Shown here one piece after another: positions 487 through 58,637 of a stretch of DNA of 64,000 nucleotides. Origin of the DNA: Candidatus Doudnabacteria bacterium (GTDB lineage Bacteria; Patescibacteriota; Doudnabacteria; UBA920; O2-02-FULL-48-8). The notes beneath the pieces are model-generated. The model was not told where the DNA came from, did no database searches, and worked only from the letters and a program-made list of their open reading frames with translations. The position numbers were made by a program, and so were the translations under genes. Location of the stretch: contig JBBCGO010000001.1 of assembly GCA_037200925.1 (NCBI GenBank), positions 179,822 to 243,821 on the forward strand, written 5' to 3'. Every line of letters begins with the position of its first letter. Position 1 is the stretch's first letter.

Positions 487-1122
487 TCAGTTCATTTTAG
501 GCTGGCGCACGAGCTTGCCGTTGACGGGTACGAATTCGGCCATCGTTTGGGCGATGGCCGCATCATAGGCCGCCGTGTGCTCAAAAGCCTTGCGCATCAT
601 CTCGAACCGGAATTCCAAGCGCACACCACCGGGCAGATCGCTTTCAAACAAGAACCTCGGATAATCCAACGGATCGACCAGAACCACGACATCGCGGGAG
701 TTTTTGGCCGCCGCGCGTAAGAGCGTGGGACCGCCGATGTCGATATTCTCAATGAGATCGTCGTATCCGGCGTCAGGCTTGGCCGCCGTCTGCAAAAACG
801 GGTAGAGGTTCACCACGACCAGGTCGATCGCCCCCATGTTGAGCTTTTCTTCCAGCTGTTTCATGTCCTGGGGATTATCGCGGCGGGCCAGAATGCCGCC
901 TGCGATCTTGGGATGGATCGTTTTTACCCGTCCACCCAGCATTTCAGGCACGCCAGTGATGGATTCGATCTTGACCACCGGCACTTTCGCAACAGCCAGT
1001 GCTTCCTTGGTCCCGCCGGTGGAGATGATCATCCATTCTCTGGCCGTCAGCGCCCGGCCAAGCTCCGGCACTCCGGTCTTGTCCGAAACGCTGATGAGCG
1101 CGCGTCGCACTGATCCTCCCAT
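487..1122 (-). CDS. purH: Stand-alone IMP cyclohydrolase (PurH N-terminal MGS-like domain only)
   Basis: RALISVSDKTG...ISTGGT...GGRVKTIHPKIAGGILARRD...DLVVVNLYPF matches the IMPCH half of PurH. Only ~212 aa, no AICAR transformylase domain. ATG at 1122 preceded by AAGGAGGAG; the track's longer form starts at a TTG. Confidence 0.75.
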   Translation of the reverse strand: MGGSVRRALISVSDKTGVPELGRALTAREWMIISTGGTKEALAVAKVPVVKIESITGVPEMLGGRVKTIHPKIAGGILARRDNPQDMKQLEEKLNMGAIDLVVVNLYPFLQTAAKPDAGYDDLIENIDIGGPTLLRAAAKNSRDVVVLVDPLDYPRFLFESDLPGGVRLEFRFEMMRKAFEHTAAYDAAIAQTMAEFVPVNGKLVRQPKMN

Positions 1123-1205
1123 AGCTCCTCCTTGCAAAGTTGAATGTATACTAACATCTTTGGCCAAAATAAAAAACAGCCGAAGCTGTTCTTTATTTGA
1201 GTTCC

Positions 1206-29700: not shown

Positions 29701-30933
29701 TTACTCATACCGCAACGCTTCTATCGGACTTAATTTCGAAGCCTTGTTCGCAGGGTAAATCCCGAAGCCTAGGCCGAATAAAGCTGAGACGCCGACAGCC
29801 AGCAGGATGCCGTAAACTGGCACGGTCGGGCTCCAATTCCCGATCTTGGCAATAGCGATCGAGCCCAGGAATCCCAAAACCACGCCGATGATCCCGCCGA
29901 TAATGGTCAGGGTGACCGCTTCAAACAAAAACTGCTGCAAAATATCTTTGCGCTTGGCGCCGATGGCTTTGCGCAGGCCGATCTCCCTGGTGCGTTCCGT
30001 GACCGAAACCAGCATGATATTCATGATGCCGATCCCGCCGACGACCAAAGAAATGCCGGCAATAGCCCCTAAGAACAGGGTCAGAGCAGAAGTAATGGTG
30101 CTCAAAAGAGTCAGCGCATCCTGCTGGTTGCGGATTGTGAAGTCATCCTTGTTCGGGTCTGTGATGTGATGGTTGCTGCGCAAAACTTTCGTCACTTCAT
30201 CCTCTGCTGCGGGAAGCGAGGATGCGTCTTTGACCTGGATTTGGATCAGGCTGTAATAGTTGATGCCTAAAATAATTTTTTGCGCGGTGGATACGGGCAC
30301 GGTGACCTGGCTGTCCTGATCCACTCCTCCCGGCCCGAGACCTTTTGGTTCAGCCACTCCGATGACGCGGAAGCTTAACTGTTTGATCTTTATCAGCTGG
30401 CCAATAGGATCCTGGTTGCCGAACAGATCGTCTTTGATGGTTGCGCCCAGGATAGCCACCTGCCCGAACCCGTCCACTTCCGACTTGGTAAACCACTCAC
30501 CTTCACTCAGCGTGATTTGCCTGACAATGCCGAAATTTTCATCCTCTCCCGCCACCGCTGCCGTTTCATCCTGATTTCCAAAACCTACATCAAACTGGCC
30601 ACGGACTTCGGGACTGACGTATTGCAGGTGGGGAGCCAGGTCTTTGTTTTGCAGAGCTTTCACATCCTCAGACGTAAGACTGGTGACTGTTGCCCCGGAA
30701 GCCTGCGCCGGAGCTGAAAATTGGCTTTTGCCGCTGCCTCCGGGAATGACAAACAACAAATTCGAGCCAATGCCTTCAACCTGATTGATGATCAGGGATT
30801 TGGCGCCGTTGCCGGCTGAGATCAGAATTATCACTGCTGTAATACCGATAATTATGCCGAGCATTGTCAAAAACGTCCTGGTCTTGTTCAGAAGCAGTGC
30901 CTTGAACGACATCTTTATGGTTTGCAGCATCAT
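29701..30933 (-). CDS. ABC transporter permease, MacB/FtsX family
   Basis: 410 aa; N-terminal TM, large MacB-type periplasmic domain, C-terminal FtsX 3-TM bundle. Confidence 0.85.
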   Translation of the reverse strand: MMLQTIKMSFKALLLNKTRTFLTMLGIIIGITAVIILISAGNGAKSLIINQVEGIGSNLLFVIPGGSGKSQFSAPAQASGATVTSLTSEDVKALQNKDLAPHLQYVSPEVRGQFDVGFGNQDETAAVAGEDENFGIVRQITLSEGEWFTKSEVDGFGQVAILGATIKDDLFGNQDPIGQLIKIKQLSFRVIGVAEPKGLGPGGVDQDSQVTVPVSTAQKIILGINYYSLIQIQVKDASSLPAAEDEVTKVLRSNHHITDPNKDDFTIRNQQDALTLLSTITSALTLFLGAIAGISLVVGGIGIMNIMLVSVTERTREIGLRKAIGAKRKDILQQFLFEAVTLTIIGGIIGVVLGFLGSIAIAKIGNWSPTVPVYGILLAVGVSALFGLGFGIYPANKASKLSPIEALRYE

Positions 30934-31619
30934 GACCGTTTTTTATCCTCAACTATTGCGCCGTCTTTGAGCCTGATCACGCGTTTGGCATAATCCGCAA
31001 TATCTTCCTCGTGGGTCACGAAGATCAAACTATGGCCCTCTTTGTTCAATTTGTTGAATAACATCATTATCTCCAAAGATGATTTGGAATCCAAATTTCC
31101 CGTCGGTTCATCCGCGAAGATCACCTTAGGATTATTGATGAGCGCGCGGGCGATGGCCACTCGCTGCTGCTGCCCGCCTGACAGTTCCGAAGGATGATGA
31201 CCGACCCGTTCCGACAGACCCACGGCAGCCAGCATTTTCAAGCCTGCCTCTTTCATCTCAGCGTCAGACCGTTTGTTCTCATAAAGCATGGGTAAGATGA
31301 CATTGTCCAGAGAACTTGTGCGCGGCAGCAGGTTGAACGCCTGGAACACAAATCCGATCTCCTGATTCCTGATGTCAGCCAGATCGTTATCCGAAAGAGA
31401 AGTAACATCTTTATTTTCAAAAATATACTTACCCGAACTGGGCCGGTCCAAAAAACCCATGACATGCATGAGCGTGGATTTTCCCGAGCCGGACGGACCC
31501 ATGATCGCAACGAATTCCCCCTGCTCAATGGTCAGGTTGATGTGGTTTATAGCGGCAACTTCATTATCCGAGCCGGGATAATAAACTTTCTGCAGATTTT
31601 CCAGTTTTATCAGGGACAT
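30930..31619 (-). CDS. ABC transporter ATP-binding protein (MacB/LolD-type)
   Basis: GPSGSGKST Walker [16 protein letters not shown] signature, [11 protein letters not shown] Walker B. Confidence 0.9.
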
Positions 31620-31620
31620 T

Positions 31621-33117
31621 TTATTTGCTCACGACAACTACAGTATCGCCCTCGGACAAGCCGGAAATCACTTCCGAATAATTATCCCCGACCAGTCCGG
31701 TCTGGATCTCAATATCCTGCGGTTTGGAATTTTTCAGGACTGTCACGATCTTTTTATCGCCGTTGGTGTTTATCAGCCGGTTCGGAATAGCCAAAGTGTC
31801 GCTCTTTTCCGCAATTAGAATGCTTAAATTCACAGTCATGCCCGGTTTGATGCTCGGATCAACAGGCAATGATGAGATGACCCGGAACTCTATCACGCCT
31901 GAATCCACGATGGAGGCGGGATCAATAGATATAACTTGCCCGGTTAAATGCTTATCAGGTCCAAATGCGTCCAGGGTCATATCAATGCTCTGATCGGGCT
32001 GGACCAGATCTATAGACGATTCGGGAATATCTGATTCCACATGCAAAGAATTCTCATCCAGCAGAACGATAGCTTCTTTCAAAGCCGTGACCTGTTCTCC
32101 AAGTTTGATATCAACTGAGGTGATTTGCCCTGATATCGGCGCGCTGATGATATTATTCGAATAAGTATTGCGTGCGATCTGAAGAGAAGCTTGGGCTTGA
32201 GCCAGGCTTGCTTGCGCTGCATTCACATCCTCGGGACGGGCCTGAGCTTTTTTCTGATCAAGCGCAGCCTGGGCGGTTTTAACCGCCGAATCTGCAGAAG
32301 ACACAGCCGAACTTTGCGTCTGAAGTGCAGACTGGTAAGCGTTGGAGTTCGCTGTGTAATTTGCCGCTTGAGTGTTGGGAATTTGCACAGTCCATATTGT
32401 TGAACTGGATATGGTGCCGGAGGCGCCAAAAGTTATGAACAGCCCCTTGCCGATAGGCTGCGGGACTCCGCGGGAAATAAGCCCGCTGTCGGCGCCAAGC
32501 CCCGAAACATTGTAATATTGCCCGCTGGGTACATCAGATACGGCAATTGTAAAACTTCCTTCCTGGGGGCCTTCGTAACTGCCGCTTATTGCGGCTTGCA
32601 CCGTTGAAGTGGAATCGGATGGAGTTGCGGCAGGTGTGGAATTAAGCAAAGCTGAAAAAGCATTTGCAACTGATGTTGCCTGCTGCTGAACTGTATTGGT
32701 ATAAGAAGCCTTGGCATTATCAAGCGCCACTTGAGCCACGTTGATATCGGGGCTGGATGCTCCACTTATTACTTTGTCCAAATTTGCCTGAGCCGACAAA
32801 ACTTGGGCATTGGCCTGGGCAATTGAAGCGGATGCGTCTTTTTCGTCGAGCATGGCCAATGTCTGTCCGGATCTGACCTTATCTCCGACCTTAACATTGA
32901 TTTGGGTTAAAATACCCGTGCCTTTGAACCCTAGACTTAAATTTGACTGCGAAGTAACCGTACCGGTTGAAATTACGGTTTCTTTTACGTCCTGTTTTGC
33001 AACCGTGTAAGACTCTTTATAAACTACGGGCTTCGGACGGAATATCAAATACCCAATGAATACTGCGGCGAGTATGACAATGGTCCAGATGATGTATTTT
33101 TTGGTAAAAAATCTCAT
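31621..33117 (-). CDS. Efflux periplasmic adaptor (HlyD/MacA-like membrane fusion protein) with extended low-complexity linker
   Basis: 498 aa; N-terminal TM, biotinyl-lipoyl-like hairpins (GQTLAMLD...), long S/A/Q-rich middle, C-terminal beta-barrel. Confidence 0.75.
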   Translation of the reverse strand: MRFFTKKYIIWTIVILAAVFIGYLIFRPKPVVYKESYTVAKQDVKETVISTGTVTSQSNLSLGFKGTGILTQINVKVGDKVRSGQTLAMLDEKDASASIAQANAQVLSAQANLDKVISGASSPDINVAQVALDNAKASYTNTVQQQATSVANAFSALLNSTPAATPSDSTSTVQAAISGSYEGPQEGSFTIAVSDVPSGQYYNVSGLGADSGLISRGVPQPIGKGLFITFGASGTISSSTIWTVQIPNTQAANYTANSNAYQSALQTQSSAVSSADSAVKTAQAALDQKKAQARPEDVNAAQASLAQAQASLQIARNTYSNNIISAPISGQITSVDIKLGEQVTALKEAIVLLDENSLHVESDIPESSIDLVQPDQSIDMTLDAFGPDKHLTGQVISIDPASIVDSGVIEFRVISSLPVDPSIKPGMTVNLSILIAEKSDTLAIPNRLINTNGDKKIVTVLKNSKPQDIEIQTGLVGDNYSEVISGLSEGDTVVVVSK

Positions 33118-37181: not shown

Positions 37182-39722
37182 TTACGCTGTTTTTTCAACC
37201 ACGGCAGGACCCGCGGCCAGCGGCGAACCGAGTTTGGTCCGTTCCAGGATCTCAGCTTCAATTTCGCTCCGGGCGCGGCCAAACTTCAAGCGCGACAAAT
37301 TCCGGATAACCGCCGCAACCGTCAGATCAGCGCCCGGCGGTTTTGGATAAGTTTCCATATTGAACGGACGGGACGCGGTCCCATGGATCATAAGCTTGAC
37401 GTAAGCGTTGTACCGGTCGATATTTATCACATCAAATTCGTTAAAAACAGGCGCAAATTCCTTGGCCATGATCTCCGCGTCCTCAACGCCGATCCGAAAA
37501 CAGATCATGGTGCCGGTGTTGCCGAAGACGGCATTCTTCATTGAGGAATCAAGCGCAGATGAGCCTTCCTTTTCCACGGCCAGCTGGGAAATGAACTGAT
37601 GGGCCATGATCAAATTCAGCCGGTATTTTCGGGCTTCGGACAGGATCGTGGCAAAACTGTCGGTCACAAAATTTTGGAACTCATCTACATACAGATAGAA
37701 ATCCCGCCGCTGATCCTCGGGAATGTCGGCGCGCGCCAAAGCAGCCATCTGGATCTTGGAGACGATTATCAATCCCAAAAGCTTGGCATTGATCTCGCCG
37801 GTCTTGCCTTTGGACAAATTTATCAGCAGGATCTTGCCTTCATCCATGACCTTCCTCAGATCGAACGCGCTTTGCGTCTGGCCGATGATATTGCGCATCA
37901 TTTCGTTTTCCACGAACCGGCCGACTTTCGAGATCAGATAACCCAGCATTTCCGATTTGTGAAAATCGGATGTCTTAGCCATTTCTTTTTCCCAAAAGCT
38001 GCGCACGATAGGGTCTTTGACCTTGGACACTTTGTATTTCTGAAAATCCGTATCCGTGAACATGCGCGGGATGTCCGCCAGCGTGCCCGGATACTGTTTG
38101 TCTTCCATCAGGGTCAGCATGACATTGCGCATGTTATGCTCGAACATGGGACCGATCATTTCCGGCGGGAAAAGTTTCATAAAGATCGCGATCATTTCCT
38201 GCACCGCAAAATCTTTTTGCTCGGGACCTGCAACTTGCAGCATGTTCAGGCCCAGAGGGCGCTCCATATCGAACGGTTCGAACAAGATCACGTCTTCCGC
38301 CCGCTCCTTGGGGATGTACTGCAGAACATCCTCGACCAGATCGCCGTGCGGGTCAACGACGCAGACTCCCTCGCCGGCGCGGATATCCTGGATGACCATA
38401 TTTTTCAGCATCTCTGTCTTCCCTGTACCGGTGCGGCCGATTATGTACTGGTGCCGCCTGCGGTCGTCGCGCTCCAGATAAATCTTGGTTTCAATGCCGC
38501 GGTAAAAATTCCGCCCCAAAAGCACGCCTGTCGTCGGCGTATTCACCGGCGCGGGAGCTTTTTTTGCGGACAGCCATTTAATGTTCGGGGTATCCAGGAA
38601 TCTGGTCGGCAAATGCCAGAGGCTGGCCAGCTCCTCGGTATTGAGGATCATCTTCGTGTTGCGGAAAACGCGGAAAATATAATCGGTCATCACAACCGAT
38701 TGTTTTTTATTCAGGACTTTAAATCCGTTGAACGGCGGCATGGTGTATTGCATGAATGACGCCAGAATATTGCGCAGGTTTGCGTCTGCGGTCATTTGAT
38801 CAGCGGAAGATGCGACCACCCGCAGATTGAACTTAAAACCCGATTTGGACGCTTTCTCTTCAAATTTCTTGATGATCTCCTGCTGCATCGGCGTCAGCTG
38901 CAGCGGCTTGTTCATGCCGGACTGGTCCATGTAGCCCGCGTGTTCCTGCTGCTTGTTCTTGGAAGAAAACAGCTGATCGAACGCGCTTCCCAAAAGGCGG
39001 AAGAAGCCATTGAAGATCTTTGAAGCGGTTGAGGAGGTGACAATATCGGGATGGCGGCCTTGCTGGATCTGAAGCGCGTATCCGCGGGGTTTTGACTGCC
39101 AGTGCTCGGAAGCCGGGCTGATCAAAAGCTGGATGGCCGCGCCTTCCTCCGCTGATAATTTCGACAAGCTGTTCGTCAGCGAGCTCAGCGGATCGGTTTC
39201 CATGGATTTGTACGTGCGCAGGGGGAACGAATAGTTTTTCTGCAAACTCAGTTCACTGGCTGCGACAAATGATTTCGGAGAAAAAATATTATACGGCCTG
39301 ATGACGTCGATCTGGGCATCGGGATATTGCCCCTGCAGCTGCTTCTCCACGAGGTTCTGGAGTCTTTTCGGGACATTGATGTAAAACGAGATCTTTCTTT
39401 CGTGGGCAGCGATCTCAAAACTTATATATTCATTTATCCCCAAAAAATGCTTTAGGTCGCCGCCTTCGGTTGTGCCGATGGTGGCGAAGAACTGCTCCGC
39501 AATGCCAATGATGTCTTTTTCCTCTTTTTGCGCCTGCTGTTCCGGGTCGGAATTTTCCTTGGGGATCATAACTTCCAAAAATACGGAATCGAGCATCCGC
39601 GGGGCCCAGGTTTTTTTGCGCAGAGTATCCATAGCCAAAAAATACAAAAGCAGGCCGACGAGGCCCAGGATGGCTATAAGTATCAGCCAGAATAAAATTA
39701 GCGAACCGTTGAACAAACTCAT
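37182..39722 (-). CDS. Membrane-anchored VirD4/TraG/TraD-type (type IV coupling protein-like) P-loop ATPase
   Basis: 846 aa; N-terminal TM helix, ~400-aa unknown domain, Walker A IIGRTGTGKT, VVDPHGD Walker B region, YLYVDEFQNF...LIMAHQFISQL C-terminal motif of T4CP/TraG-family ATPases. Confidence 0.6.
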   Translation of the reverse strand: MSLFNGSLILFWLILIAILGLVGLLLYFLAMDTLRKKTWAPRMLDSVFLEVMIPKENSDPEQQAQKEEKDIIGIAEQFFATIGTTEGGDLKHFLGINEYISFEIAAHERKISFYINVPKRLQNLVEKQLQGQYPDAQIDVIRPYNIFSPKSFVAASELSLQKNYSFPLRTYKSMETDPLSSLTNSLSKLSAEEGAAIQLLISPASEHWQSKPRGYALQIQQGRHPDIVTSSTASKIFNGFFRLLGSAFDQLFSSKNKQQEHAGYMDQSGMNKPLQLTPMQQEIIKKFEEKASKSGFKFNLRVVASSADQMTADANLRNILASFMQYTMPPFNGFKVLNKKQSVVMTDYIFRVFRNTKMILNTEELASLWHLPTRFLDTPNIKWLSAKKAPAPVNTPTTGVLLGRNFYRGIETKIYLERDDRRRHQYIIGRTGTGKTEMLKNMVIQDIRAGEGVCVVDPHGDLVEDVLQYIPKERAEDVILFEPFDMERPLGLNMLQVAGPEQKDFAVQEMIAIFMKLFPPEMIGPMFEHNMRNVMLTLMEDKQYPGTLADIPRMFTDTDFQKYKVSKVKDPIVRSFWEKEMAKTSDFHKSEMLGYLISKVGRFVENEMMRNIIGQTQSAFDLRKVMDEGKILLINLSKGKTGEINAKLLGLIIVSKIQMAALARADIPEDQRRDFYLYVDEFQNFVTDSFATILSEARKYRLNLIMAHQFISQLAVEKEGSSALDSSMKNAVFGNTGTMICFRIGVEDAEIMAKEFAPVFNEFDVINIDRYNAYVKLMIHGTASRPFNMETYPKPPGADLTVAAVIRNLSRLKFGRARSEIEAEILERTKLGSPLAAGPAVVEKTA

Positions 39723-45167: not shown

Positions 45168-45201
45168 AAAAAGCCGTGCTTGGAAATAATTTCCATACGA
45201 C

Positions 45202-45429
45202 TTAATTGCCAACCCCCTCCTCGCCCAGATAGCCGTCCGGATACGGAGAGTCATCCTCTTGTTCCATCATCCTGAGACGCTCCTGTTCATAGTCGTTCAA
45301 GCGGCAACCGAACAGGCTTCGCGAAGGTCTGCCCTTTAACGACTTGGCGGGTTTTGAACTCGCTATCCTCTGATGCTTTCGGTTTTTCCCCGAATTGATC
45401 TTCGTGCCGTTCGGCCGTTTCTTGCCCAT
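45202..45429 (-). CDS. Possible small basic/acidic protein (76 aa) overlapping the upstream ORF
   Basis: MGKKRPNG... preceded by GGAGGG (short spacing). Overlaps the 108-aa ORF by ~38 nt in another frame. Uncertain. Confidence 0.25.
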   Translation of the reverse strand: MGKKRPNGTKINSGKNRKHQRIASSKPAKSLKGRPSRSLFGCRLNDYEQERLRMMEQEDDSPYPDGYLGEEGVGN

Positions 45430-45466
45430 CGACCCTCCATGGGTTTCTTTTTCAAAAAACCAGTGT

Positions 45467-45793
45467 CTAGTTGAATTGCGGGCCGGGGAATAAAGCACGC
45501 GTACCGAAGCGAGATGAAGCAGCGACTGGCTGCCGGAGAATCTCCCGGAGCCCTTCTTGGAGATCACAAACTACCAATGGCTGAATACCGAAAATGAAAA
45601 GGGCTTTGACCAGAAAATCCACATCGCCGTCGTCATAAACGATGACATCGTCGAACGGCCGATCTTCGCCGGCCTCGGTCGACAGCGTAGCGATGACATC
45701 CTCACGGGGTACCCACCAAAGCTTGATTTTAGCAGGGTTAACTATCGGAAGCTGTTGAAGCTGCCTGACCTGGCAAACGATCAGAATCTTCAT
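45467..45793 (-). CDS. Hypothetical protein (108 aa) in a GC-rich patch
   Basis: ATG preceded by AAGGAGGAG; MKILIVCQ...DDVIVYDDGDVDF; family not recognised (weak PIN-like impression only). Confidence 0.4.
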   Translation of the reverse strand: MKILIVCQVRQLQQLPIVNPAKIKLWWVPREDVIATLSTEAGEDRPFDDVIVYDDGDVDFLVKALFIFGIQPLVVCDLQEGLREILRQPVAASSRFGTRALFPGPQFN

Positions 45794-45827
45794 GTCTCCT
45801 CCTTTTCACTATCGAATACCCGAGCGA

Positions 45828-48155
45828 TTATTTCACTGCATGCCCTCCGAATTGTTCCCGCATGCTGGACACTAGCTTGCCTACAAAACTCTGGGTCTTT
45901 TTTGACTTTACGCGGAACCGGAATGATTGTTCAATGATCTGCGCCGGTATCTTTAATTCTTTGGCTGTTTTGGCGGTCCATTCGCCTTCTCCCGTGTAAC
46001 CGACCACGCCTGTAATTCCTCTTAAATTCTGGCCGCGCATCAGGAAAGCGTCCTTCAGCCAGCCGACCAAACGGGACTCCACCACACTGCCGTGATTATA
46101 CAGGGCCGCGACATCAACCAAGTTTAATTTGAAGGGTGATTTTTTAAGGATGCCAAACCCTTCGGCCAAGGACTGCATCATGCCGTACTCAATGCCGTTG
46201 TGGACCATTTTGACAAAGTGCCCGGACCCGTACCCGGGAAAAAACTTATATCCGCCAAAAACTGAAATGCCTCTGAATAAAGATTCTAATTTCAAATACG
46301 TTTTGCGGTTCCCGCCTATCATGAGGCAGGCTCCCCGGCGCGCCCCGCCGGGGCCGCCGGAAACTCCGATGCCCAAAAATTCTATCCCCCGTTTTTGCAG
46401 AAATTTGCCGCGGCGGATGGAATCTTTATAAAAAGAATTGCCGCCGTCAATGATTATATCCCCGCGCCGCAAGTGCTTGGACAGGCCGTTTTTCCCGAAC
46501 AAGACCTCATCCACACTGGCATGCGGCACCATGAGCCAGACCACCCGCTGTTCCGGCAGGCCTGCCAATAACTGTCCGTAACTTTCCGTTACCGTGAATT
46601 GGGGATTCTGAGAAAGTTCTTTTACCGCTTCCGGCGAATGGTGATTCGTGCTTGTGAGCTGATATCCTTTTTCCATCATCTGCAGGACCAGATTCTTCCC
46701 CATTTTTCCGAGGCCGATCATGGCCAGTTTTTTTGGCCCAGCTGCGACGGCCGGAACACCATCGATACCGAATTTCTCTAAAATTTTATTGTTCTTGCCG
46801 TAAAAATTGAGCGGTGTAAGTTTTTTCTGCCAAGCATTGACGATCGGGTCAATGAACTTCCAGGCGGAAAGAGCCTCGCGGCTGGAAACAAACAAAGTTT
46901 GGTCTCCCACTATCGCGTCCGAGATCAGGCGCGCATATTCCGCCAAATAGCGCTGGGACGGATCGGCTTCGTACGCAAAGTCCAAAGTTTTTTTCTCTAA
47001 TTGCATGCCGGTCCCCGGTTTTTTTGACCAAAACTCGATCACGATCCCGGCGACAGGCTGGATCTTAAAACAGATCCTGTTTTTTAGACCCTGTCCTTTG
47101 AAAGTCACAATGATCTGCTTGTCATTTTCCGGAAAATTCTTGCCTGATTCAATATAGATCGGCACGCCTTTGAAACGATTCCCTTCCAATTCAGTTTTGA
47201 GCTTAAAATATGTCTCGGTGTTGGAGCTGCGTGCCACCCCCGCTTCTTTCCTGTATCCGCGGTACTGGGCGCGGAGAGTATTGGTTCTTATTTCATCCGC
47301 GCTGAGGATATGCAGATTTTCCATGACTTCCGCACGCTTCAAACGGATCCCCGAGCCTGACATCGCACCAGGATCATCCATTGTGACCAAAGCCAGCATC
47401 TGCAATAAATGATTTTGGCCCACATCCAGAAGCGCTCCGACGCCGTCGTAAAATTCGCCGCGGCCCTGCACATCGATCTGTTCAAGCAATTTGATCTCAA
47501 TTTTTTCAATGAACTTATTGTTCCAGATATCCTCCAGGAGGTGGTTGGAAAACCGGAAGGCCATGACATTCTGCAAAACCTCTTTCGCCAGGTAATGATC
47601 AATGCGATAAACTTGATCTTCAGAAAAAAGCTTGGCCAGAAGTTTATCCAATTTTTGCGCATGCGTCAGGTCTTTGCCGAACGGCTTTTCCACCAAGACG
47701 CGGGTCCAGCCCAGCTTGCCTTTATCGGTCAGGCCTGACGCGGACAGCTGGTGGAACAAGTTGTCATTAAAATGCGGCGGGATAGCCAGGTAAAATAATT
47801 TATTGCTGTGGATCTTCAGTTTCCGGTCGAGTCTGCCTAAGCGCACGCTCAGCCTTTGATACGCCTCCGGATCTTCCAGCTGGCCCTGATGGTAGGTGAA
47901 CAACTGCAAAAACTTATTAAGCTTTCTGTCCAAGCCGGAAGGGTAATGCTTTTTAAGCGAACTTCGCAGATGTGCCCGGAAATCCTCATCCGACCAATCG
48001 CGCCTGGAAAAACCCACCACAGAAAATCCCGGCGGCAGATTTTTTTGCTTGAACAAATAATAGATGGCGGGGGTCAGTTTTCTCTCCATCAGATCCCCGG
48101 TTGCGCCGAATACAACAAGTACTGTCGCCTGCTTATTTTTCTTTAAATTTGGCAT
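45828..48155 (-). CDS. Fused glucose-6-phosphate dehydrogenase (Zwf) - 6-phosphogluconate dehydrogenase (short Gnd-type) bifunctional protein
   Basis: N-terminal ~500 aa: VVFGATGDLMERKL and RIDHYLAKE motifs of G6PD. C-terminal ~310 aa: MIGLGKMGKNL Rossmann start and GGNSFYKDS...YGSGHFVKMVHNGIEYGMMQ of 6PGDH. One uninterrupted 818-aa ORF; start chosen at MPNLKK (48155). Confidence 0.75.
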   Translation of the reverse strand: MPNLKKNKQATVLVVFGATGDLMERKLTPAIYYLFKQKNLPPGFSVVGFSRRDWSDEDFRAHLRSSLKKHYPSGLDRKLNKFLQLFTYHQGQLEDPEAYQRLSVRLGRLDRKLKIHSNKLFYLAIPPHFNDNLFHQLSASGLTDKGKLGWTRVLVEKPFGKDLTHAQKLDKLLAKLFSEDQVYRIDHYLAKEVLQNVMAFRFSNHLLEDIWNNKFIEKIEIKLLEQIDVQGRGEFYDGVGALLDVGQNHLLQMLALVTMDDPGAMSGSGIRLKRAEVMENLHILSADEIRTNTLRAQYRGYRKEAGVARSSNTETYFKLKTELEGNRFKGVPIYIESGKNFPENDKQIIVTFKGQGLKNRICFKIQPVAGIVIEFWSKKPGTGMQLEKKTLDFAYEADPSQRYLAEYARLISDAIVGDQTLFVSSREALSAWKFIDPIVNAWQKKLTPLNFYGKNNKILEKFGIDGVPAVAAGPKKLAMIGLGKMGKNLVLQMMEKGYQLTSTNHHSPEAVKELSQNPQFTVTESYGQLLAGLPEQRVVWLMVPHASVDEVLFGKNGLSKHLRRGDIIIDGGNSFYKDSIRRGKFLQKRGIEFLGIGVSGGPGGARRGACLMIGGNRKTYLKLESLFRGISVFGGYKFFPGYGSGHFVKMVHNGIEYGMMQSLAEGFGILKKSPFKLNLVDVAALYNHGSVVESRLVGWLKDAFLMRGQNLRGITGVVGYTGEGEWTAKTAKELKIPAQIIEQSFRFRVKSKKTQSFVGKLVSSMREQFGGHAVK

Positions 48156-48259
48156 ATGAGGACATATTAGCATATTTTGGCAGGAAAAATGAAACAATTT
48201 AACGCCTGCATTCGTTATATATTTACAAACCCAGAAAGCTGCTGTATACTCAAAAAAGC

Positions 48260-48844
48260 ATGAATATCCTAAAAGAACCAACACAAAATCCGACTGACGA
48301 ACATTTGGTGGAAAATTACCTGAACGGCGACTCGCATGCCCTGGATCTCCTGATCCAGAAATATCTGAGCCAGACGTATAATTTTGTTTTCAAATATGTC
48401 CATACGACGCAGGACGCCGAAGACGTGACCCAGGAGGCCTTTGTTAAGGCCTGGAAAAAAATAGATACTTTCAAACGCCAGTATAAATTTAAAACCTGGC
48501 TGTTTACGATCGCCAAAAACACGGCGCTCGACCATCTGAAAAAACGGGGCCTTGTTCCGTTCTCCGCTCTCAATGGTGAAAATGAAGGAGAGGCTTTTGA
48601 GCAAAGTTTGGTGTCTTACGAAACACTGCCGGACGAAGCTTTGGCCAAGATCCAGGATGCGAAAATAATAGGCCACGCAGTCGATAAATTGCCGGATATT
48701 TACCGCCAGGTCATCACACTTTATTACGACGATCAGCTGAACTTTCGGGAGATCGCCGGCCTGCTGAAACAATCCATCAATACAATAAAAACCCGCCATC
48801 GCCGGGCTCTGGCCTATTTGAGGCGCGATTTGCCCAAAAATTGA
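48260..48844 (+). CDS. ECF-subfamily RNA polymerase sigma-70 factor
   Basis: Region 2 (DVTQEAFVKAWKKIDTF...WLFTIAKNTALD) and region 4 HTH (NFREIAGLLKQSINTIKTR). Confidence 0.85.
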   Translation: MNILKEPTQNPTDEHLVENYLNGDSHALDLLIQKYLSQTYNFVFKYVHTTQDAEDVTQEAFVKAWKKIDTFKRQYKFKTWLFTIAKNTALDHLKKRGLVPFSALNGENEGEAFEQSLVSYETLPDEALAKIQDAKIIGHAVDKLPDIYRQVITLYYDDQLNFREIAGLLKQSINTIKTRHRRALAYLRRDLPKN

Positions 48845-49725: not shown

Positions 49726-51435
49726 ATGACATTTATTCAAAAATTCCTAACTTATATAAAAGCTCATAAAGTCATCACGGTCATTGTCCTGGTCGTGGCG
49801 GCTTTTGGCGGATACCAGTGGTATAAAAAAGCGCATGCTTCCGCAGGTTCGGTCCAGTACATTACCAAAGCCGCGGCGAAAACGACGATCTCCGTATCCG
49901 TCTCCGGCACAGGCCAGGTTTCGGCTCAAAACAGGATCGACCTTAAACCCGGCGGGTCCGGCCAGGTCGCAGCCGAGCTCGTCACGGTCAATGTCAAGCA
50001 AGGCGACCAGGTCAAGGCCGGCCAGGTTATCGCCACTGTGGATCAAAAAAATAATTCAGTCGCTCTGATCCAGGCCAAAGCATCATTGCAAAGCGCGCAG
50101 GCGAATTACGATAAATTGATATCAGGGCTGACTTCTACGGATATGCAAACTGCCCAGCTCGCGGTAACTACGGCACAGCAGGCCTTAGACAAGGCGAACA
50201 GAGATTATGCGAATACCGTCACCACCCAGCAGCAAAACGTGGATAAAGCCTATAGCGCCCTGCTGAATTCCGATCTGCAGCCGGATCCGTCTGATGCCAA
50301 CACCACTGCGGCAGTGACGATCACCGGGAATTATACGGCGAAAGACCCGAGCCAAATAACCGTGAGCTTATCTGAAGTTCCCGCCGGGATGCGTTATCAA
50401 AGCACCGGACTTTCTGGCGACGGTGATCTGATAACGCGGGGCGTTGCCCAGCCGATAGGAGACGGGCTGTTCATTACGTTTGATGCAAGCGGCACCCTGA
50501 ATGCTTCCACGGTTTGGACAATTGATATTCCGAACACAAAATCGTCCGGTTACCTGAACAATAATTTTGCTTATAACTCCGCGCTTCAAAATCAAACTCA
50601 AGCCCTGGCATCCGCCCAGGATACGATCAATTCGGCGCAAAATTCCCTGACCCAGGCCCAGCTGTCCCTGCAATCAAAAACAGCTCCCCCGACCTCGGCT
50701 GATGTAGCGTCGGCCAAAGCCCAGATCGCGCAAGCTCAAGCACAGCTGCAGAACGCGGATGTAAATTACAGCAACAACATCATTAAATCCCCGTTCGACG
50801 GCCAAGTCGCACAATTAAATAACCAGCCGGGCGACCAGGTCACCTCAAGTACGATCATTGCCACGGTCATCACCAACCAAAAACTGGCTGTCATGCCACT
50901 GAACGAAGTCGATGCCGCTAAAGTCTCGGTGGGACAGAAAGTTAACCTGACCTTTGACGCGCTCGACAGTCTGAATGTTGTCGGCACCGTCGCGCAGGTG
51001 GATACTCTCGGCACGGTAAGCCAGGGGGTTGTTACTTATAACGTAAAAATCGGCTTTGATTCTCAGGATGCCCGGATCAAACCCGGCATGAGCGTCACCG
51101 CCGCTATTATTACGGATGTCAAAACTGACATCGTGGCAGTGCCCAGTTCCGCCGTAAAATCAGATTCCAACGGCGATTACGTCCAAGTCCTGAACTCCAA
51201 AGGCGAACCGGAAAATAAAACCGTACAAGTCGGGATCTCCAATGATACTGACACGGAGATCACAAGCGGTTTGAACGAAGGCGACATGGTCGTCACACAA
51301 ACCATCAACTCCGCGGCCAAAACCACAACCGCGACAACCAGGGCCGGCGGCGGGATCATCCCGGGTCTGGGAGGCGGGGGCGGCGCGGTCAGAGGCGCCT
51401 TTACAGGCGGGGGCGGCGGCGGAGGCGGCCGATGA
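49726..51435 (+). CDS. Efflux periplasmic adaptor (HlyD/MacA-like) with long low-complexity linker and Gly-rich tail
   Basis: 569 aa; paralog of 31621..33117; ends [20 protein letters not shown]. Confidence 0.75.
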   Translation: MTFIQKFLTYIKAHKVITVIVLVVAAFGGYQWYKKAHASAGSVQYITKAAAKTTISVSVSGTGQVSAQNRIDLKPGGSGQVAAELVTVNVKQGDQVKAGQVIATVDQKNNSVALIQAKASLQSAQANYDKLISGLTSTDMQTAQLAVTTAQQALDKANRDYANTVTTQQQNVDKAYSALLNSDLQPDPSDANTTAAVTITGNYTAKDPSQITVSLSEVPAGMRYQSTGLSGDGDLITRGVAQPIGDGLFITFDASGTLNASTVWTIDIPNTKSSGYLNNNFAYNSALQNQTQALASAQDTINSAQNSLTQAQLSLQSKTAPPTSADVASAKAQIAQAQAQLQNADVNYSNNIIKSPFDGQVAQLNNQPGDQVTSSTIIATVITNQKLAVMPLNEVDAAKVSVGQKVNLTFDALDSLNVVGTVAQVDTLGTVSQGVVTYNVKIGFDSQDARIKPGMSVTAAIITDVKTDIVAVPSSAVKSDSNGDYVQVLNSKGEPENKTVQVGISNDTDTEITSGLNEGDMVVTQTINSAAKTTTATTRAGGGIIPGLGGGGGAVRGAFTGGGGGGGGR

Positions 51436-52151
51436 TCGAATGCCATCATATCAATAAATCCTATTTCAACGGCGATGTCGAGACTAAAGTTTTAAAAGAC
51501 GTAACCTTCACGATCAAAGACGGCGAATTCGTGGCGATCATGGGCCCGTCGGGATCCGGCAAATCCACTCTGATGCACATCATTGGAGCGCTGGATACGC
51601 CCACGCACGGAAAATATATCCTGGACGGCAAGGACGTCTCGACTCTGTCTGACGACGAACTGGCCGCCATCCGCCGGCAAAAAATAGGTTTTGTATTCCA
51701 GTCGTTCAACCTGCTTCCCCGCGCCACCGTGCTCCGCAATGTGGCTCTGCCTTTGGTTTACGCCGAGATCGATAAAACGAACCGCGATGAACTGGCCAAA
51801 AAAGCCTCTTTACAGGCGGGTCTGGATGAATCGCGGTTTTATCATTTATCAAACCAGCTCTCCGGCGGACAGATGCAAAGGGTGGCCATTGCAAGGGCTC
51901 TTGTAAATAACCCTTCGCTTCTTCTGGCCGATGAACCGACGGGCAATTTGGATACCAAGACCGGCGACATCGTGCTTCACACATTTCAAAAGTTGAACGA
52001 GCAAGGCCATACGATCGTACTGATTACTCACGAACCTTACGTGGCCGAACACGCATCACGCATCATTCATATCCGTGACGGCGAGATTTTGAAAGACGAA
52101 ACTAATCTGAACCGCAGAATAGTAGATACCAACAAGATCCATGAAGACTAG
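51432..52151 (+). CDS. ABC transporter ATP-binding protein (MacB/LolD-type)
   Basis: [35 protein letters not shown]. Confidence 0.9.
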
Positions 52152-53379
52152 AGATCTATTTGATGAAAGCTACAGCGCCTTGACGGTCAACAAGGTCAGG
52201 TCCAGCCTGACCATGCTTGGAATTATTATCGGCATCGGCTCCGTGATAGCGTTGATCTCAATCGGCCAAGGTGCCGCGGGGTCGATCCAGGCCAACATCC
52301 AGTCCATCGGCTCAAATCTGATCATAGTCACGCCGGGCGCTCCCAGAGGAGCAGGAGCCGCCGTATCCACTGGCCGCGGCAGCGCCGAGACCCTGACCAT
52401 GGATGACGAACTCTATCTGCAGAGCAACCTGACTGATGCTAAAGCCGTGGAACCGGAACTGTCGAAACGCTACCAGGTAACGGCCAAAGGCACCAATACC
52501 AATACCCAGGTCGTCGGCACCAGCAGCAATTATACTACTGTGCGAAATGTGAATATTGATGGCGGGTCATTTATTACTGACCAACAAGTTACAAATTTGG
52601 CCAAAGTCGCGGTCTTGGGTCCCACGACCCGGGACGATCTGTTCGGCGTTGGAGCTGATGCCGTGGGCCAGACCATCCGGATAAATTCCGTTGTTTTCAA
52701 TGTCATCGGAGTTACCGCAAGCAAGGGCGGCAGCGGATTTTTTAACCAGGATGATATTATTTTCATTCCGATATCAGTTGCCCAGCATTACCTGGTCGGG
52801 CCCAATGCGGACGGAAAAGATTATGTCACTACCATTGGTATCTCGGCTCAGAGCCCTGACGTCATGACCACGGTACAGCAGGAAACAACTGACGATTTGC
52901 TTTCCCTCCACCAGATCGGCAATCCGGCCCAGGCTGATTTCCAGGTCCAGAACCAGGCTGACATTGTCTCGGCCGCATCCTCGGTCACCGGCACGTTTAC
53001 GATCCTTTTAGCTTCCATTGCCGGCATTTCCCTGGTTGTCGGCGGCATCGGCATCATGAACATGATGCTGACGACCGTGACTGAGCGGACGCGGGAGATC
53101 GGCCTGCGCAAAGCAATCGGCGCAACCCGTCAGGATATCAATCTGCAATTCCTGATGGAAGCGATCATGCTGACTTTTTTGGGCGGTTTGATCGGCGTGG
53201 TCGCCGGCTGGCTGGCCTCGATCGCTGCGACCCACTTTGCCGGCATCCCCTCCAAGATCACCTCGTCATCGGTTCTGCTGGCTTTCGGCGTCTCGGCTGC
53301 AATTGGCGTGGTCTTCGGCTACTACCCGGCGCAAAAAGCTTCAAAGCTGAACCCAATTGAAGCTTTAAGATTTGAATAA
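52141..53379 (+). CDS. ABC transporter permease, MacB/FtsX family
   Basis: 412 aa; paralog of 29701..30933. Confidence 0.85.
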   Translation: MKTRDLFDESYSALTVNKVRSSLTMLGIIIGIGSVIALISIGQGAAGSIQANIQSIGSNLIIVTPGAPRGAGAAVSTGRGSAETLTMDDELYLQSNLTDAKAVEPELSKRYQVTAKGTNTNTQVVGTSSNYTTVRNVNIDGGSFITDQQVTNLAKVAVLGPTTRDDLFGVGADAVGQTIRINSVVFNVIGVTASKGGSGFFNQDDIIFIPISVAQHYLVGPNADGKDYVTTIGISAQSPDVMTTVQQETTDDLLSLHQIGNPAQADFQVQNQADIVSAASSVTGTFTILLASIAGISLVVGGIGIMNMMLTTVTERTREIGLRKAIGATRQDINLQFLMEAIMLTFLGGLIGVVAGWLASIAATHFAGIPSKITSSSVLLAFGVSAAIGVVFGYYPAQKASKLNPIEALRFE

Positions 53380-56587: not shown

Positions 56588-58198
56588 CTACGGCCCGACT
56601 TCCCTGATGATCGGGGTCTTGCCTGTGGAGGAATTGACAATGATGTTCGGGGCTGAGCCTGAGAAGCTTTTGGCTGAAGAATCAGTGTAATGGATGGTAA
56701 AGGTATTGGTCACCACTTCCTGGATATCGGCGGATGCGGTGCTGACATTGGCATCATAGGTAATGATCCAGTTATTGGTCACATCCTTGTTGCCTGAGAT
56801 GTTAAACAGGTAATTACCGGAGCAGGTAGGGCTGTTGGCTGTCAGTCCCCCATTAACAGAGCCCGGGCCTGTAACCGTCAGGTTCCTAAGATTGGTCAGG
56901 TTGGAAGAGACAGTGTCGCAGATGTAGTTGACCGTGGCTGCAGAAGGGCCGGAATTGACCAGGGTGATCTGGTAGGTCAGGGTATCCCCGTTATTGACTG
57001 AAGTGCTGGGACTATAGGGGTTGCCGTTGACCTTACTGACAAACTTCGTTGTATTGGCAAAGTTGGCAGAACAGACAACGTTCATGATGCTCTTCTCGTT
57101 TGACTGGCTGTTGCCCCCGGCATTGAAGGCCTGGACCACATAGAAATAGGTCACTCCGGTGGAAGGAGGGGTATCCAGGTAAGTGCCAAAGGTGCCTGTG
57201 CCGCTCTGGGCAGGCAGGTTGCCTGAGATATTGGCATACCCTGAGCCTGATGTGGTTGATCGCAGGACTATGAAGCCGGTTTCATTGCCGGAGTTATCAG
57301 TCCAGGTTACTTTCAGCTTAGAACAGGGCACCGAAGCATCGGTATTGATATTATCCACTTTGGTCAGGGTCGGGGCTGTGGGAGCTACTACATATGCTGC
57401 CTGGGAGTAGTAGGTTGCCTGACTATAATAGGTTGCTTGAGAGTAGTATGCTGATTGGGCGTAGTAGGCTGACTGACTATAGTATGCCGATTGACTGTAG
57501 TAGGATGATTGGGAATAGTATGCTGCCTGGGAATAGCACGCAGGAAGACCGCTACAGTTCGAATTGACTGTACAGTTTGTGGTATTGCCGATGGTGCATT
57601 CGCTGCCAGCCGGAATACAACCGCATGACCCGCTCCAGCGATAGTATTGCGGTTCGGAGTATGGAGTCGCATAGTATGACGATTGGGAATAGTAGGAGGA
57701 TTGGGAGTAATAAGAAGCTTGACTATAACAACTAAAAAAACAGGAACTGCTTGCGCTTATGCTCCCATTCCATTGAACTGTGTTAAGTGCGGGAGAAAAA
57801 AATTGAATCGTATCAAAATTAGCATTTCCCGGTACGCCCATGCTATTGGCATAGAATCCGCGATTATTCCACTGATCCACCTGACACCATGTTTGATAGT
57901 CCCCTGTAGTCTCACCAACGTATTCTGCCCAGGCGCAAACCGTAAAATAACCTTGACCTTGAGCCCCGCCGCTGACAGAATAACTCACTGAGCCGCTGCC
58001 CGGATTAATATGATTGGGAAAGCCCGGTTGATAGTAATCAGGGCCACACGTGACAAAACTGCTTCCGGTATTGGAACAAGAGAATGCCTGGGCTTTATGA
58101 AAGTATGCAAAACAGCTTCCTGCCAAAAGAAGCAGAAACAATAATAATATAGATTTATTGTTCGGGTAGGAATCCCGAAGGAAATTCCAAAGACGCAT
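56588..58198 (-). CDS. Secreted/surface protein with tandem YYSQ(S/A) repeats, an FN3-like domain and a DUF11-like C-terminal domain
   Basis: Signal peptide (LLLFLLLLAGSCFAYFHKAQA); about 12 tandem 5-aa YYSQS/YYSQA units encoded by 15-bp repeats; TWTDNSGNETGFIVLRS FN3-like; C-terminal LTYQITLVNSGPSAATVNY. Start at 58198 or 58216. Confidence 0.6.
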   Translation of the reverse strand: MRLWNFLRDSYPNNKSILLLFLLLLAGSCFAYFHKAQAFSCSNTGSSFVTCGPDYYQPGFPNHINPGSGSVSYSVSGGAQGQGYFTVCAWAEYVGETTGDYQTWCQVDQWNNRGFYANSMGVPGNANFDTIQFFSPALNTVQWNGSISASSSCFFSCYSQASYYSQSSYYSQSSYYATPYSEPQYYRWSGSCGCIPAGSECTIGNTTNCTVNSNCSGLPACYSQAAYYSQSSYYSQSAYYSQSAYYAQSAYYSQATYYSQATYYSQAAYVVAPTAPTLTKVDNINTDASVPCSKLKVTWTDNSGNETGFIVLRSTTSGSGYANISGNLPAQSGTGTFGTYLDTPPSTGVTYFYVVQAFNAGGNSQSNEKSIMNVVCSANFANTTKFVSKVNGNPYSPSTSVNNGDTLTYQITLVNSGPSAATVNYICDTVSSNLTNLRNLTVTGPGSVNGGLTANSPTCSGNYLFNISGNKDVTNNWIITYDANVSTASADIQEVVTNTFTIHYTDSSAKSFSGSAPNIIVNSSTGKTPIIREVGP

Positions 58199-58637
58199 AG
58201 TTGATGTCCGTGGCAACTGCCTTATTTGTGTTAAACAGATCTTCTTTGGTTTGGATCTTCATTATTCTGGTTCCGGCTTTCAGGTCCGACATCGAACCTG
58301 CTACAACTTTTGTCTCAGGATAAAACCCGACACCGGATTTTACATCAGCAGGAGCGATCAGTGCGATCTTCTCAATTGTGGTCTGTGGGCTTATGGAGAA
58401 TTGAATGACCCTGCTATCCGTCCGATCATCTCCGGGCTTGGTTGACCGGATCGATCCTTTAACAGTGATCAAACTGCCTTCTACTTTCTGGATATCACCT
58501 GACATCAGATAATCATCAGTTGCGGTGATTGGTGTTTGCTGAACCGCGATTTGTTTTAAACGATCCTTTAAAAATAAAACGAATAACAATAGTACGATAA
58601 GTAAAACTACTAATATTCTCAAAGCTTTTTTATTCAT
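58155..58637 (-). CDS. Hypothetical membrane-anchored protein (160 aa), distant relative of paralogs A/B
   Basis: N-terminal TM; GDIQKVEGSLITVKGSIRST...TRIMKIQTKED resembles the 49266/53408 family. 3' end overlaps the next gene by ~44 nt. Confidence 0.45.
   Translation of the reverse strand: MNKKALRILVVLLIVLLLFVLFLKDRLKQIAVQQTPITATDDYLMSGDIQKVEGSLITVKGSIRSTKPGDDRTDSRVIQFSISPQTTIEKIALIAPADVKSGVGFYPETKVVAGSMSDLKAGTRIMKIQTKEDLFNTNKAVATDINYASLEFPSGFLPEQ

Follow-up and report, generated by a model that had tools for sequence, protein, structure and literature searches.

Can a bacterium encode two non-consecutive enzymes of the oxidative pentose-phosphate branch on one polypeptide, and if so, what is gained by it? 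This question is raised by a locus in a stretch of 64,000 nucleotides from Candidatus Doudnabacteria bacterium (assembly GCA_037200925.1, contig JBBCGO010000001.1, positions 179,822 to 243,821 of the forward strand), which as a whole is called the window here. In it, glucose-6-phosphate dehydrogenase (Zwf, G6PD or G6PDH) is followed in frame by 6-phosphogluconate dehydrogenase (Gnd or 6PGDH). An earlier note, made from the letters of the DNA, had proposed a single-chain fusion and offered two ways to account for it, namely substrate channelling or a two-gene locus collapsed by an assembly indel. The analysis presented here shows that the fusion is real and conserved, and it is probably functional in both halves. 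As a whole, the best explanation, which is very likely the right one, combines a bifunctional Zwf–Gnd polypeptide with lactone hydrolysis off the two domains, an origin by loss of a stop codon in an operon, and a benefit that lies in expression and co-localisation.

The starting point is the frame itself. One unbroken reading frame on the minus strand spans Zwf and Gnd, and neither a stop codon nor a change of frame occurs at the junction (nucleotides 46731-46799). The parts of the gene are as follows.

45828..48155, minus strand: fused Zwf–Gnd coding sequence, 775 amino acids plus stop codon (open reading frame listing, 100% identity to NCBI protein P0001, four Pfam domains).
46800..48155, minus strand: Zwf half, residues 1-452 (TIGR00871, alignment to PDB 9emm, conserved motifs).
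46731..46799, minus strand: inter-domain linker, residues 453-475, about 23 residues, unconserved and with low predicted local distance difference test (pLDDT) values.
45828..46730, minus strand: short-chain Gnd half, residues 476-775 plus stop codon (TIGR00872, alignment to 8ihe, conserved motifs).
46640-46654, minus strand: Gnd cofactor loop N504-H-H-S-P, in the region of residues 501-505, which differs from the NR[TS] of the family.
48156..48284, minus strand: in-frame upstream extension of 43 codons, overlapping the sigma-factor gene that begins at 48260 and is divergent from the fused gene.

The ATG at 48155 opens the 775-residue product (MPNLKKNKQATVLVVFGATGDL...; MPNLKKNK...), which is 100% identical to P0001, named ‘glucose-6-phosphate dehydrogenase [Candidatus Doudnabacteria bacterium]’ at NCBI, where its contig measures 964 kb. 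The longest version of the frame is 45828..48284 on the same strand, 818 residues when counted from a GTG at 48284. The 43 additional codons are without counterpart in the homologs, which, like the NCBI annotation, begin at the ATG; this ATG is the likely start, and 48156..48284 is probably an untranslated 5′ region together with the divergent promoter region. The earlier note was thus right about the single frame, but the length of 818 residues that it gave for 45828-48155 belongs to the GTG start, position 48155 being the start of the 775-residue product.

What the frame encodes was read from domain models. Pfam returns both G6PD domains and then both 6PGD domains on one polypeptide, and together with the NCBIfam models in the same frame this bears out the proposed union of step 1 with step 3 in the oxidative branch. 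The motifs on which that proposal was built are all found in the 775-residue product, namely GATGDL (17-22), RIDHYLAKE (184-192), GLGKMGKN (481-488), GGNSFYKDS (571-579) and YGSGHFVKMVHNGIEYG (641-658). Conservation was assessed on a homolog set consisting of the 120 best matches among 5.8 billion clustered proteins (clusters at 90% identity), to which the counts out of 120 given below refer.

The Zwf half is near-complete. It comprises G6PD_N (PF00479, residues 14-196, E 3.5e-57) and G6PD_C (PF02781, residues 198-452, E 5.8e-73), and it exceeds the cut-off of the NCBIfam zwf equivalog TIGR00871 (451.7 bits versus 400.6), residues 10-452 covering positions 2-462 of the 486 in the profile. Among the homologs GATGDL is near-invariant and the E, K, P and G of EKPFG (156-160) are invariant, as are H187, Y188 and K191 of RIDHYLAKE; the catalytic-histidine motif QNH249 is kept, with N248 and H249 invariant, and of the basic pair R51 is found in 112 and R52 in 110 of the 120 sequences. 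The structural alignment to 9emm stops at residue 504 of 532. Since alignments to solved G6PDs end near residue 450 and the profile match at position 462, the usual C-terminal tail of Zwf is replaced in the fusion. Unfused CPR-type Zwf proteins (CPR, Candidate Phyla Radiation) are likewise short-tailed, so that the short tail is better seen as a trait of the lineage than as a defining catalytic feature.

The Gnd half is of the short type, with about 300 residues and a single C-terminal hemi-domain, the two properties that mark the TIGR00872 class. Pfam places NAD_binding_2 (PF03446) at residues 476-630 and 6PGD (PF00393) at 645-755, the latter profile being matched only over positions 1-117 of 290, and the NCBIfam gnd_rel equivalog TIGR00872 is matched over its full profile (2-296 of 299, residues 476-775) with 309.6 bits against a cut-off of 297.2. 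Alignment to structures of stand-alone short-chain 6PGDHs covers residues 2-337 of 340 in 8ihe and 20-351 in 10gw. Because it starts at residue 2 of a stand-alone enzyme, the fusion is attached to an intact Gnd N-terminus. GLGKMG, GGNS and the HFVKMVHNGIEYG block with K649 and E656 are invariant or nearly so in the homolog set, and R766-EQFGG-H772, which reads R766-x2-F-G-x-H772 (RX2FGXH) and lies three residues from the free C-terminus, is invariant. According to a structural study of the Gluconobacter oxydans enzyme, short-chain 6PGDHs are tetramers in which 6-phosphogluconate is bound by RX2FGXH, a motif that the neighbouring subunit supplies with its C-terminal helix and tail and without which binding does not occur (bioRxiv 10.64898/2026.01.21.700892). 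The order Zwf-to-Gnd would follow from this arrangement, as the C-terminal RX2FGXH of Gnd must stay free while the already-short Zwf tail is, by inference, dispensable.

A second feature of the Gnd half concerns its cofactor, for which the NCBIfam name of the class specifies NAD+. Following the second Rossmann strand is a loop that reads N-R-T or N-R-S in 73 of the 120 homologs, a sequence that resembles the NADP-binding motif of long-chain 6PGDH and that is unlike the Y-D-H-D found at this place in the NAD+-dependent 8ihe enzyme. In the subclade to which the window protein belongs, one residue is inserted and the loop is N-[QH]-H-S-[RK], the window protein having N-H-H-S-P; cofactor preference may thus be altered in this Doudnabacteria subclade. 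The deviating loop (NHH versus NR[TS]) and the truncated Zwf tail are also what could be cited for the idea that one half is catalytically dead and serves as a regulatory or structural domain. This idea is very improbable, given that the window protein keeps every catalytic residue checked (H187, K191, H249, K649, E656, R766 and H772), none of which varies in the family, and that both halves score above curated equivalog cut-offs. With catalytic residues kept and cut-offs passed, both halves look functional.

Is the fusion authentic? An assembly or sequencing indel that merged separate zwf and gnd genes into one frame is conceivable in principle, as zwf and gnd do lie side by side in related lineages, as two genes so narrowly spaced that a single-base error could merge them. 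The distribution of the architecture speaks otherwise. All 120 best homologs (735-811 residues) possess the four Pfam domains, and the assemblies from which they stem are independent (NCBI, JGI, ENA, Logan); in close relatives, with identities of 86, 82 and 78%, the architecture is accompanied by a recognisably similar linker. When 1.84 billion cluster representatives (50% identity) were searched exhaustively with HMMER, the matches included fragments and at least 11 fusions of full length (P0121-P0126, P0128, P0129, P0131, P0133 and P0139), the next matches being an unfused Zwf (P0134, 471 residues, 51% identity) and an unfused short Gnd (P0172, 306 residues, 54%). With this architecture present in at least 120 clusters (at 90% identity) across independent assemblies, the indel explanation is rejected, with hardly any probability left to it.

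The named sources of the homologs are mostly CPR/Patescibacteria (among them Doudna-, Sacchari-, Portnoy-, Levy-, Taylor-, Kaiser-, Peregrini-, Gottesman- and Wildermuthbacteria). A second Doudnabacteria locus (L002), with 62% identity, has the same fused gene within the synteny of the window (RecR, fusion, LiaF-TM, DnaB, CysS, CorA), and single-frame fusions are present at five loci (L006-L010) among GTDB species representatives. One of these, L009 (9947-12349), belongs to a metagenome-assembled genome (MAG) labelled Actinomycetes with 67% G+C, where the fused gene lies among pheST, infC, thrS and valS; its G+C content of 66.9% compares with 66.7 and 67.3% for the flanks, and its G+C content at third codon positions is 84.5%. 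Because this locus carries a fused gene of native composition, the fusion is not strictly limited to CPR. CPR-like fused or split zwf/gnd genes with 42-53% G+C are also seen in MAGs labelled ‘uncultured Gammaproteobacteria’ (L006, L007 and L023), labels that may be wrong.

How are the two enzymes joined? When aligned, the 120 homologs are highly conserved as far as Y452, which is invariant, and again from G481-L-G-K-M-G onwards. The stretch from Y452 to G481 measures 17-43 residues and is unconserved in sequence, with recognisable similarity (YGKNNKIL...) in the relatives at 86, 82 and 78% identity. An AlphaFold2 monomer model built from a 119-sequence alignment, with pLDDT and the predicted template modelling score (pTM) as readouts, has a mean pLDDT of 90.9 and a pTM of 0.77, pLDDT falling below 50 only at residues 1-5 and 465-471. 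In this model, the protein consists of two well-folded enzymes on a flexible tether. An alternative reading takes the chain for a precursor, either cleaved or accompanied by a Gnd half translated from an internal start, so that effectively two enzymes would result. A methionine at position 479 of the window protein would fit an internal start, but this position, which belongs to the first Rossmann strand, is isoleucine in about half of the homologs, and the linker shows no conserved cleavage motif among the 120 homologs. A precursor is hence quite improbable. Post-translational cleavage has been suspected for some diatom fusion proteins (PMC2173943).

What, then, would the fused enzyme do? The N-terminal Zwf domain would oxidise glucose-6-phosphate to 6-phosphoglucono-delta-lactone. 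The lactone would be hydrolysed off the two domains, spontaneously or through a lactonase with a gene of its own, and the C-terminal short-chain Gnd domain would convert 6-phosphogluconate by oxidative decarboxylation to ribulose-5-phosphate, for a net yield per hexose phosphate of two NAD(P)H and one pentose phosphate. The gain from fusion would lie in a fixed 1:1 expression, co-regulation and co-localisation or proximity in very small genomes, with no closed channel. That the benefit is one of stoichiometry, co-regulation and proximity and not of a sealed channel is argued from the fused reactions being non-consecutive and the tether variable and disordered.

The lactonase deserves attention here, as it would catalyse the missing step 2. 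The earlier note had seen none in the window, and this holds for the type searched: Pfam scans of unassigned mid-size frames and two home-built hidden Markov models for PF01182-type lactonases, run against all six-frame open reading frames and the second of them trained on CPR lactonases with filters off, found none in the 64 kb (best E = 9.8), the YbhE beta-propeller type lying outside these models. Nor did Pfam find a PF01182 (Glucosamine_iso) domain in the fused protein, whose linker has only about 23 residues. Among fused loci with flanks, one of nine has a PF01182 lactonase within 10 kb, versus three of six CPR split loci in which pgl is directly adjacent; PF01182-like frames adjoin unfused CPR zwf/gnd genes at L011 (12365-13093), L018 (9142-9957) and L024 (9110-9916), in the order zwf-gnd-pgl or pgl-zwf-gnd.

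This rarity of a nearby lactonase, its absence from the window and the pTM of 0.77 for the two-domain model are what true channelling could draw on, in which the lactone would be hydrolysed and handed on within the fusion assembly and a dedicated lactonase would be dispensable. Against this stands the chemistry, since the two fused activities do not follow each other in the pathway and the second does not act on the lactone that the first domain releases. Moreover, the folds are connected by a linker that is unconserved, variable in length and predicted to be disordered (low confidence), the lactonase search was confined to the 64-kb window and the PF01182 type, and at one fused locus (L003) a PF01182 gene lies 3 kb from the fusion, so that fusion and lactonase can coexist. 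Channelling, as suggested in the earlier note, is therefore unlikely. A bolder proposal remains on the doubtful side, with slightly better prospects: the fusion would be a self-sufficient, lactonase-free oxidative module of minimal genomes, Zwf dimers and Gnd tetramers, made of the same chains, would impose a higher-order assembly in which the lactone stays close to the second active site for the time that spontaneous hydrolysis takes, and, with pipelines naming the protein only ‘G6PD’, the oxidative branch would have been under-called systematically in CPR.

The genomic surroundings bear on function as well. The fused gene appears to stand alone, with a convergent gene (LiaF-TM) downstream and a divergent one (the sigma-factor gene) upstream, and scans for Rfam families, promoters and terminators around it gave nothing informative. 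At two other fused loci (L001 and L003), transketolase directly follows the fused gene, which ties the latter to pentose-phosphate metabolism. The window otherwise holds ordinary CPR housekeeping genes (ATP synthase operon, murD, mraY, ftsW, murJ, lepA, dnaB, cysS, recR, dnaX and seven tRNAs), many of these gene names being our own reading of the translations by eye and thus presumptive. The stretch of about 660 bp (45168-45827) that separates the fused gene's stop codon from the convergent LiaF-TM gene is without Pfam or Rfam match; two candidate frames in it, 45202-45567 and 45467-45793 (both minus strand), matched nothing, and the corresponding gap in the syntenic Doudnabacteria locus is 2 bp.

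As to origin, adjacent but separate zwf->gnd(short) genes are found among GTDB species representatives in Moranbacteria (L011), Saccharibacteria (L018, L021, L024) and Gottesmanbacteria (L025) and at L023, and also in the cultured Bacillota Fictibacillus (L012) and Brevibacillus (L013). Chloroflexota show the order gnd->zwf, and Vibrionaceae and Pasteurellaceae the order zwf-pgl-gnd. The unfused neighbours in other CPR lineages and in Bacillota suggest the loss of a stop codon in a zwf-gnd operon as the most likely birth of the fusion. A crude neighbour-joining tree of the Zwf domain (181 sequences, no support measure) places the fused forms in one broad region beside split CPR Zwf, away from canonical long-tailed Zwf. 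Within that region there are 17 separate pure-fused clades, interspersed with short ‘unfused’ metagenomic entries, which may be contig-end fragments.

Several points weigh against a bifunctional fusion with the origin and function proposed. Both activities are deduced from sequence for every member of the family, and cofactor use and oligomeric state likewise. The Zwf half does without the canonical C-terminal tail of about 25 residues, and the replacement of N-R-T/S by N-H-H-S-P makes the cofactor preference, and conceivably the efficiency, of the window Gnd uncertain. Cleavage of the kind suspected in diatoms could also apply to the window protein. Finally, the tree yields no single clean fused clade, so that a single origin by stop loss is not demonstrated by it. 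The bifunctional Zwf–Gnd polypeptide nevertheless stays by far the preferred explanation.

Some features of the window are unrelated to the fused gene. Paralogous three-gene clusters, each with a periplasmic adaptor, an ABC ATPase and a MacB-type permease (identities read by eye), occupy 29701-33117 (minus strand) and 49726-53379 (plus strand); their adaptor proteins are clearly alike, and the second cluster follows the sigma-factor gene (48260-48844), itself divergent from the fused gene. At 56588-58216 (minus strand), a 542-residue frame has a Cys-rich N-terminal part and many hexapeptide repeats of the YYSQ[SA] type, with tandem arrays of 18 and 54 nucleotides at 57393-57536 and 57671-57706; a surface protein would be a guess. 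At 487-1167 (minus strand), a 226-residue protein combines an MGS-like domain with a match to the AICARFT/IMPCHase profile that is limited to its first 59 positions, which corresponds to a stand-alone IMP-cyclohydrolase-like half of PurH. Lastly, a homolog of a DUF8128/TrwB-like coupling protein of about 845 residues lies beside the CorA/CysS/DnaB block at both Doudnabacteria loci (window 37182-39722, minus strand; L002 19685-22219).

What has been seen is a natural and recurrent bacterial fusion of two non-consecutive pathway steps. Its interest is modest and resides mainly in an annotation blind spot and in an uncharacterised bifunctional enzyme; nothing known about the pentose-phosphate pathway is overturned. 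Zwf is usually a dimer or tetramer and its Gnd partner a tetramer, a pairing that makes the protein well suited for finding out whether enzyme fusions serve stoichiometry or channelling. The fused enzyme may also serve as a compact catalyst for the regeneration of NADPH. NCBI and JGI name the fused proteins only ‘glucose-6-phosphate dehydrogenase’, so that metabolic reconstructions of CPR that rely on names or on the single best match may miss 6-phosphogluconate dehydrogenase and score the oxidative branch as incomplete. A CPR-wide metabolic survey has described this branch as patchy (PMC7304191).

The full-text literature searched gave no description of a bacterial or CPR Zwf–Gnd fusion, matches to ‘zwf-gnd’ being engineered co-expression constructs. 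The remark in the earlier note that the architecture is not standard is accordingly correct for textbooks and for the bacterial literature searched, but not for CPR genomes in public databases, where it is common, nor in view of a G6PDH/6PGDH fusion in the diatom Phaeodactylum tricornutum (PMC2173943, PMC3148214). The latter (protein ID 54663, XP_002183714.1) was described by Kroth et al. 2008 (PMC2173943); as of 2011, no further nr entry was found to contain such a fusion, and the gene model had been called into question (Stover et al. 2011, PMC3148214). Like the protein of the window, it holds both activities in one frame with G6PD first, and both fusions have been read as a means of co-regulation or faster conversion. 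It differs in being eukaryotic, cytosolic and reported from one species only, whereas the window fusion is bacterial, is represented in at least 120 sequence clusters and has a short-chain (tetramer-type) Gnd and unfused operon relatives. Since such unfused bacterial relatives exist, the bacterial fusion is likely to have arisen independently of the diatom one.

More broadly, the bacterial Zwf–Gnd fusion belongs with the fusions of G6PD to pentose-phosphate enzymes, a class already known. The G6PD::6PGL fusions (Plasmodium GluPho, Giardia, Trichomonas and metazoan H6PD) have often been annotated only as ‘G6PD’ and overlooked (PMC3148214); the naming of the bacterial proteins parallels what happened to those of Giardia and Trichomonas. 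They too join G6PD to another enzyme of the oxidative branch, with the difference that their partner is the lactonase, i.e. step 2, which is consecutive with step 1, whereas the partner in the window is step 3, without a PF01182 domain. The closest counterparts of the second half are the stand-alone tetrameric short-chain 6PGDHs (Gluconobacter oxydans 6XEQ/10GW and Gnd2 8IHE), to which the window Gnd aligns end to end, sharing the Lys/Glu pair and RX2FGXH; it is tethered to Zwf through its N-terminus and belongs to a family with an NADP-like NR[TS] loop, whereas 8ihe is stand-alone and NAD+-dependent, with YDHD. Finally, the bacterial zwf-gnd(-pgl) operons of the CPR and Bacillota named above contain the same genes in the same order as the fusion. 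In these operons, as in those of the zwf-pgl-gnd type, separate polypeptides are divided by stop codons, whereas the window encodes a single chain.

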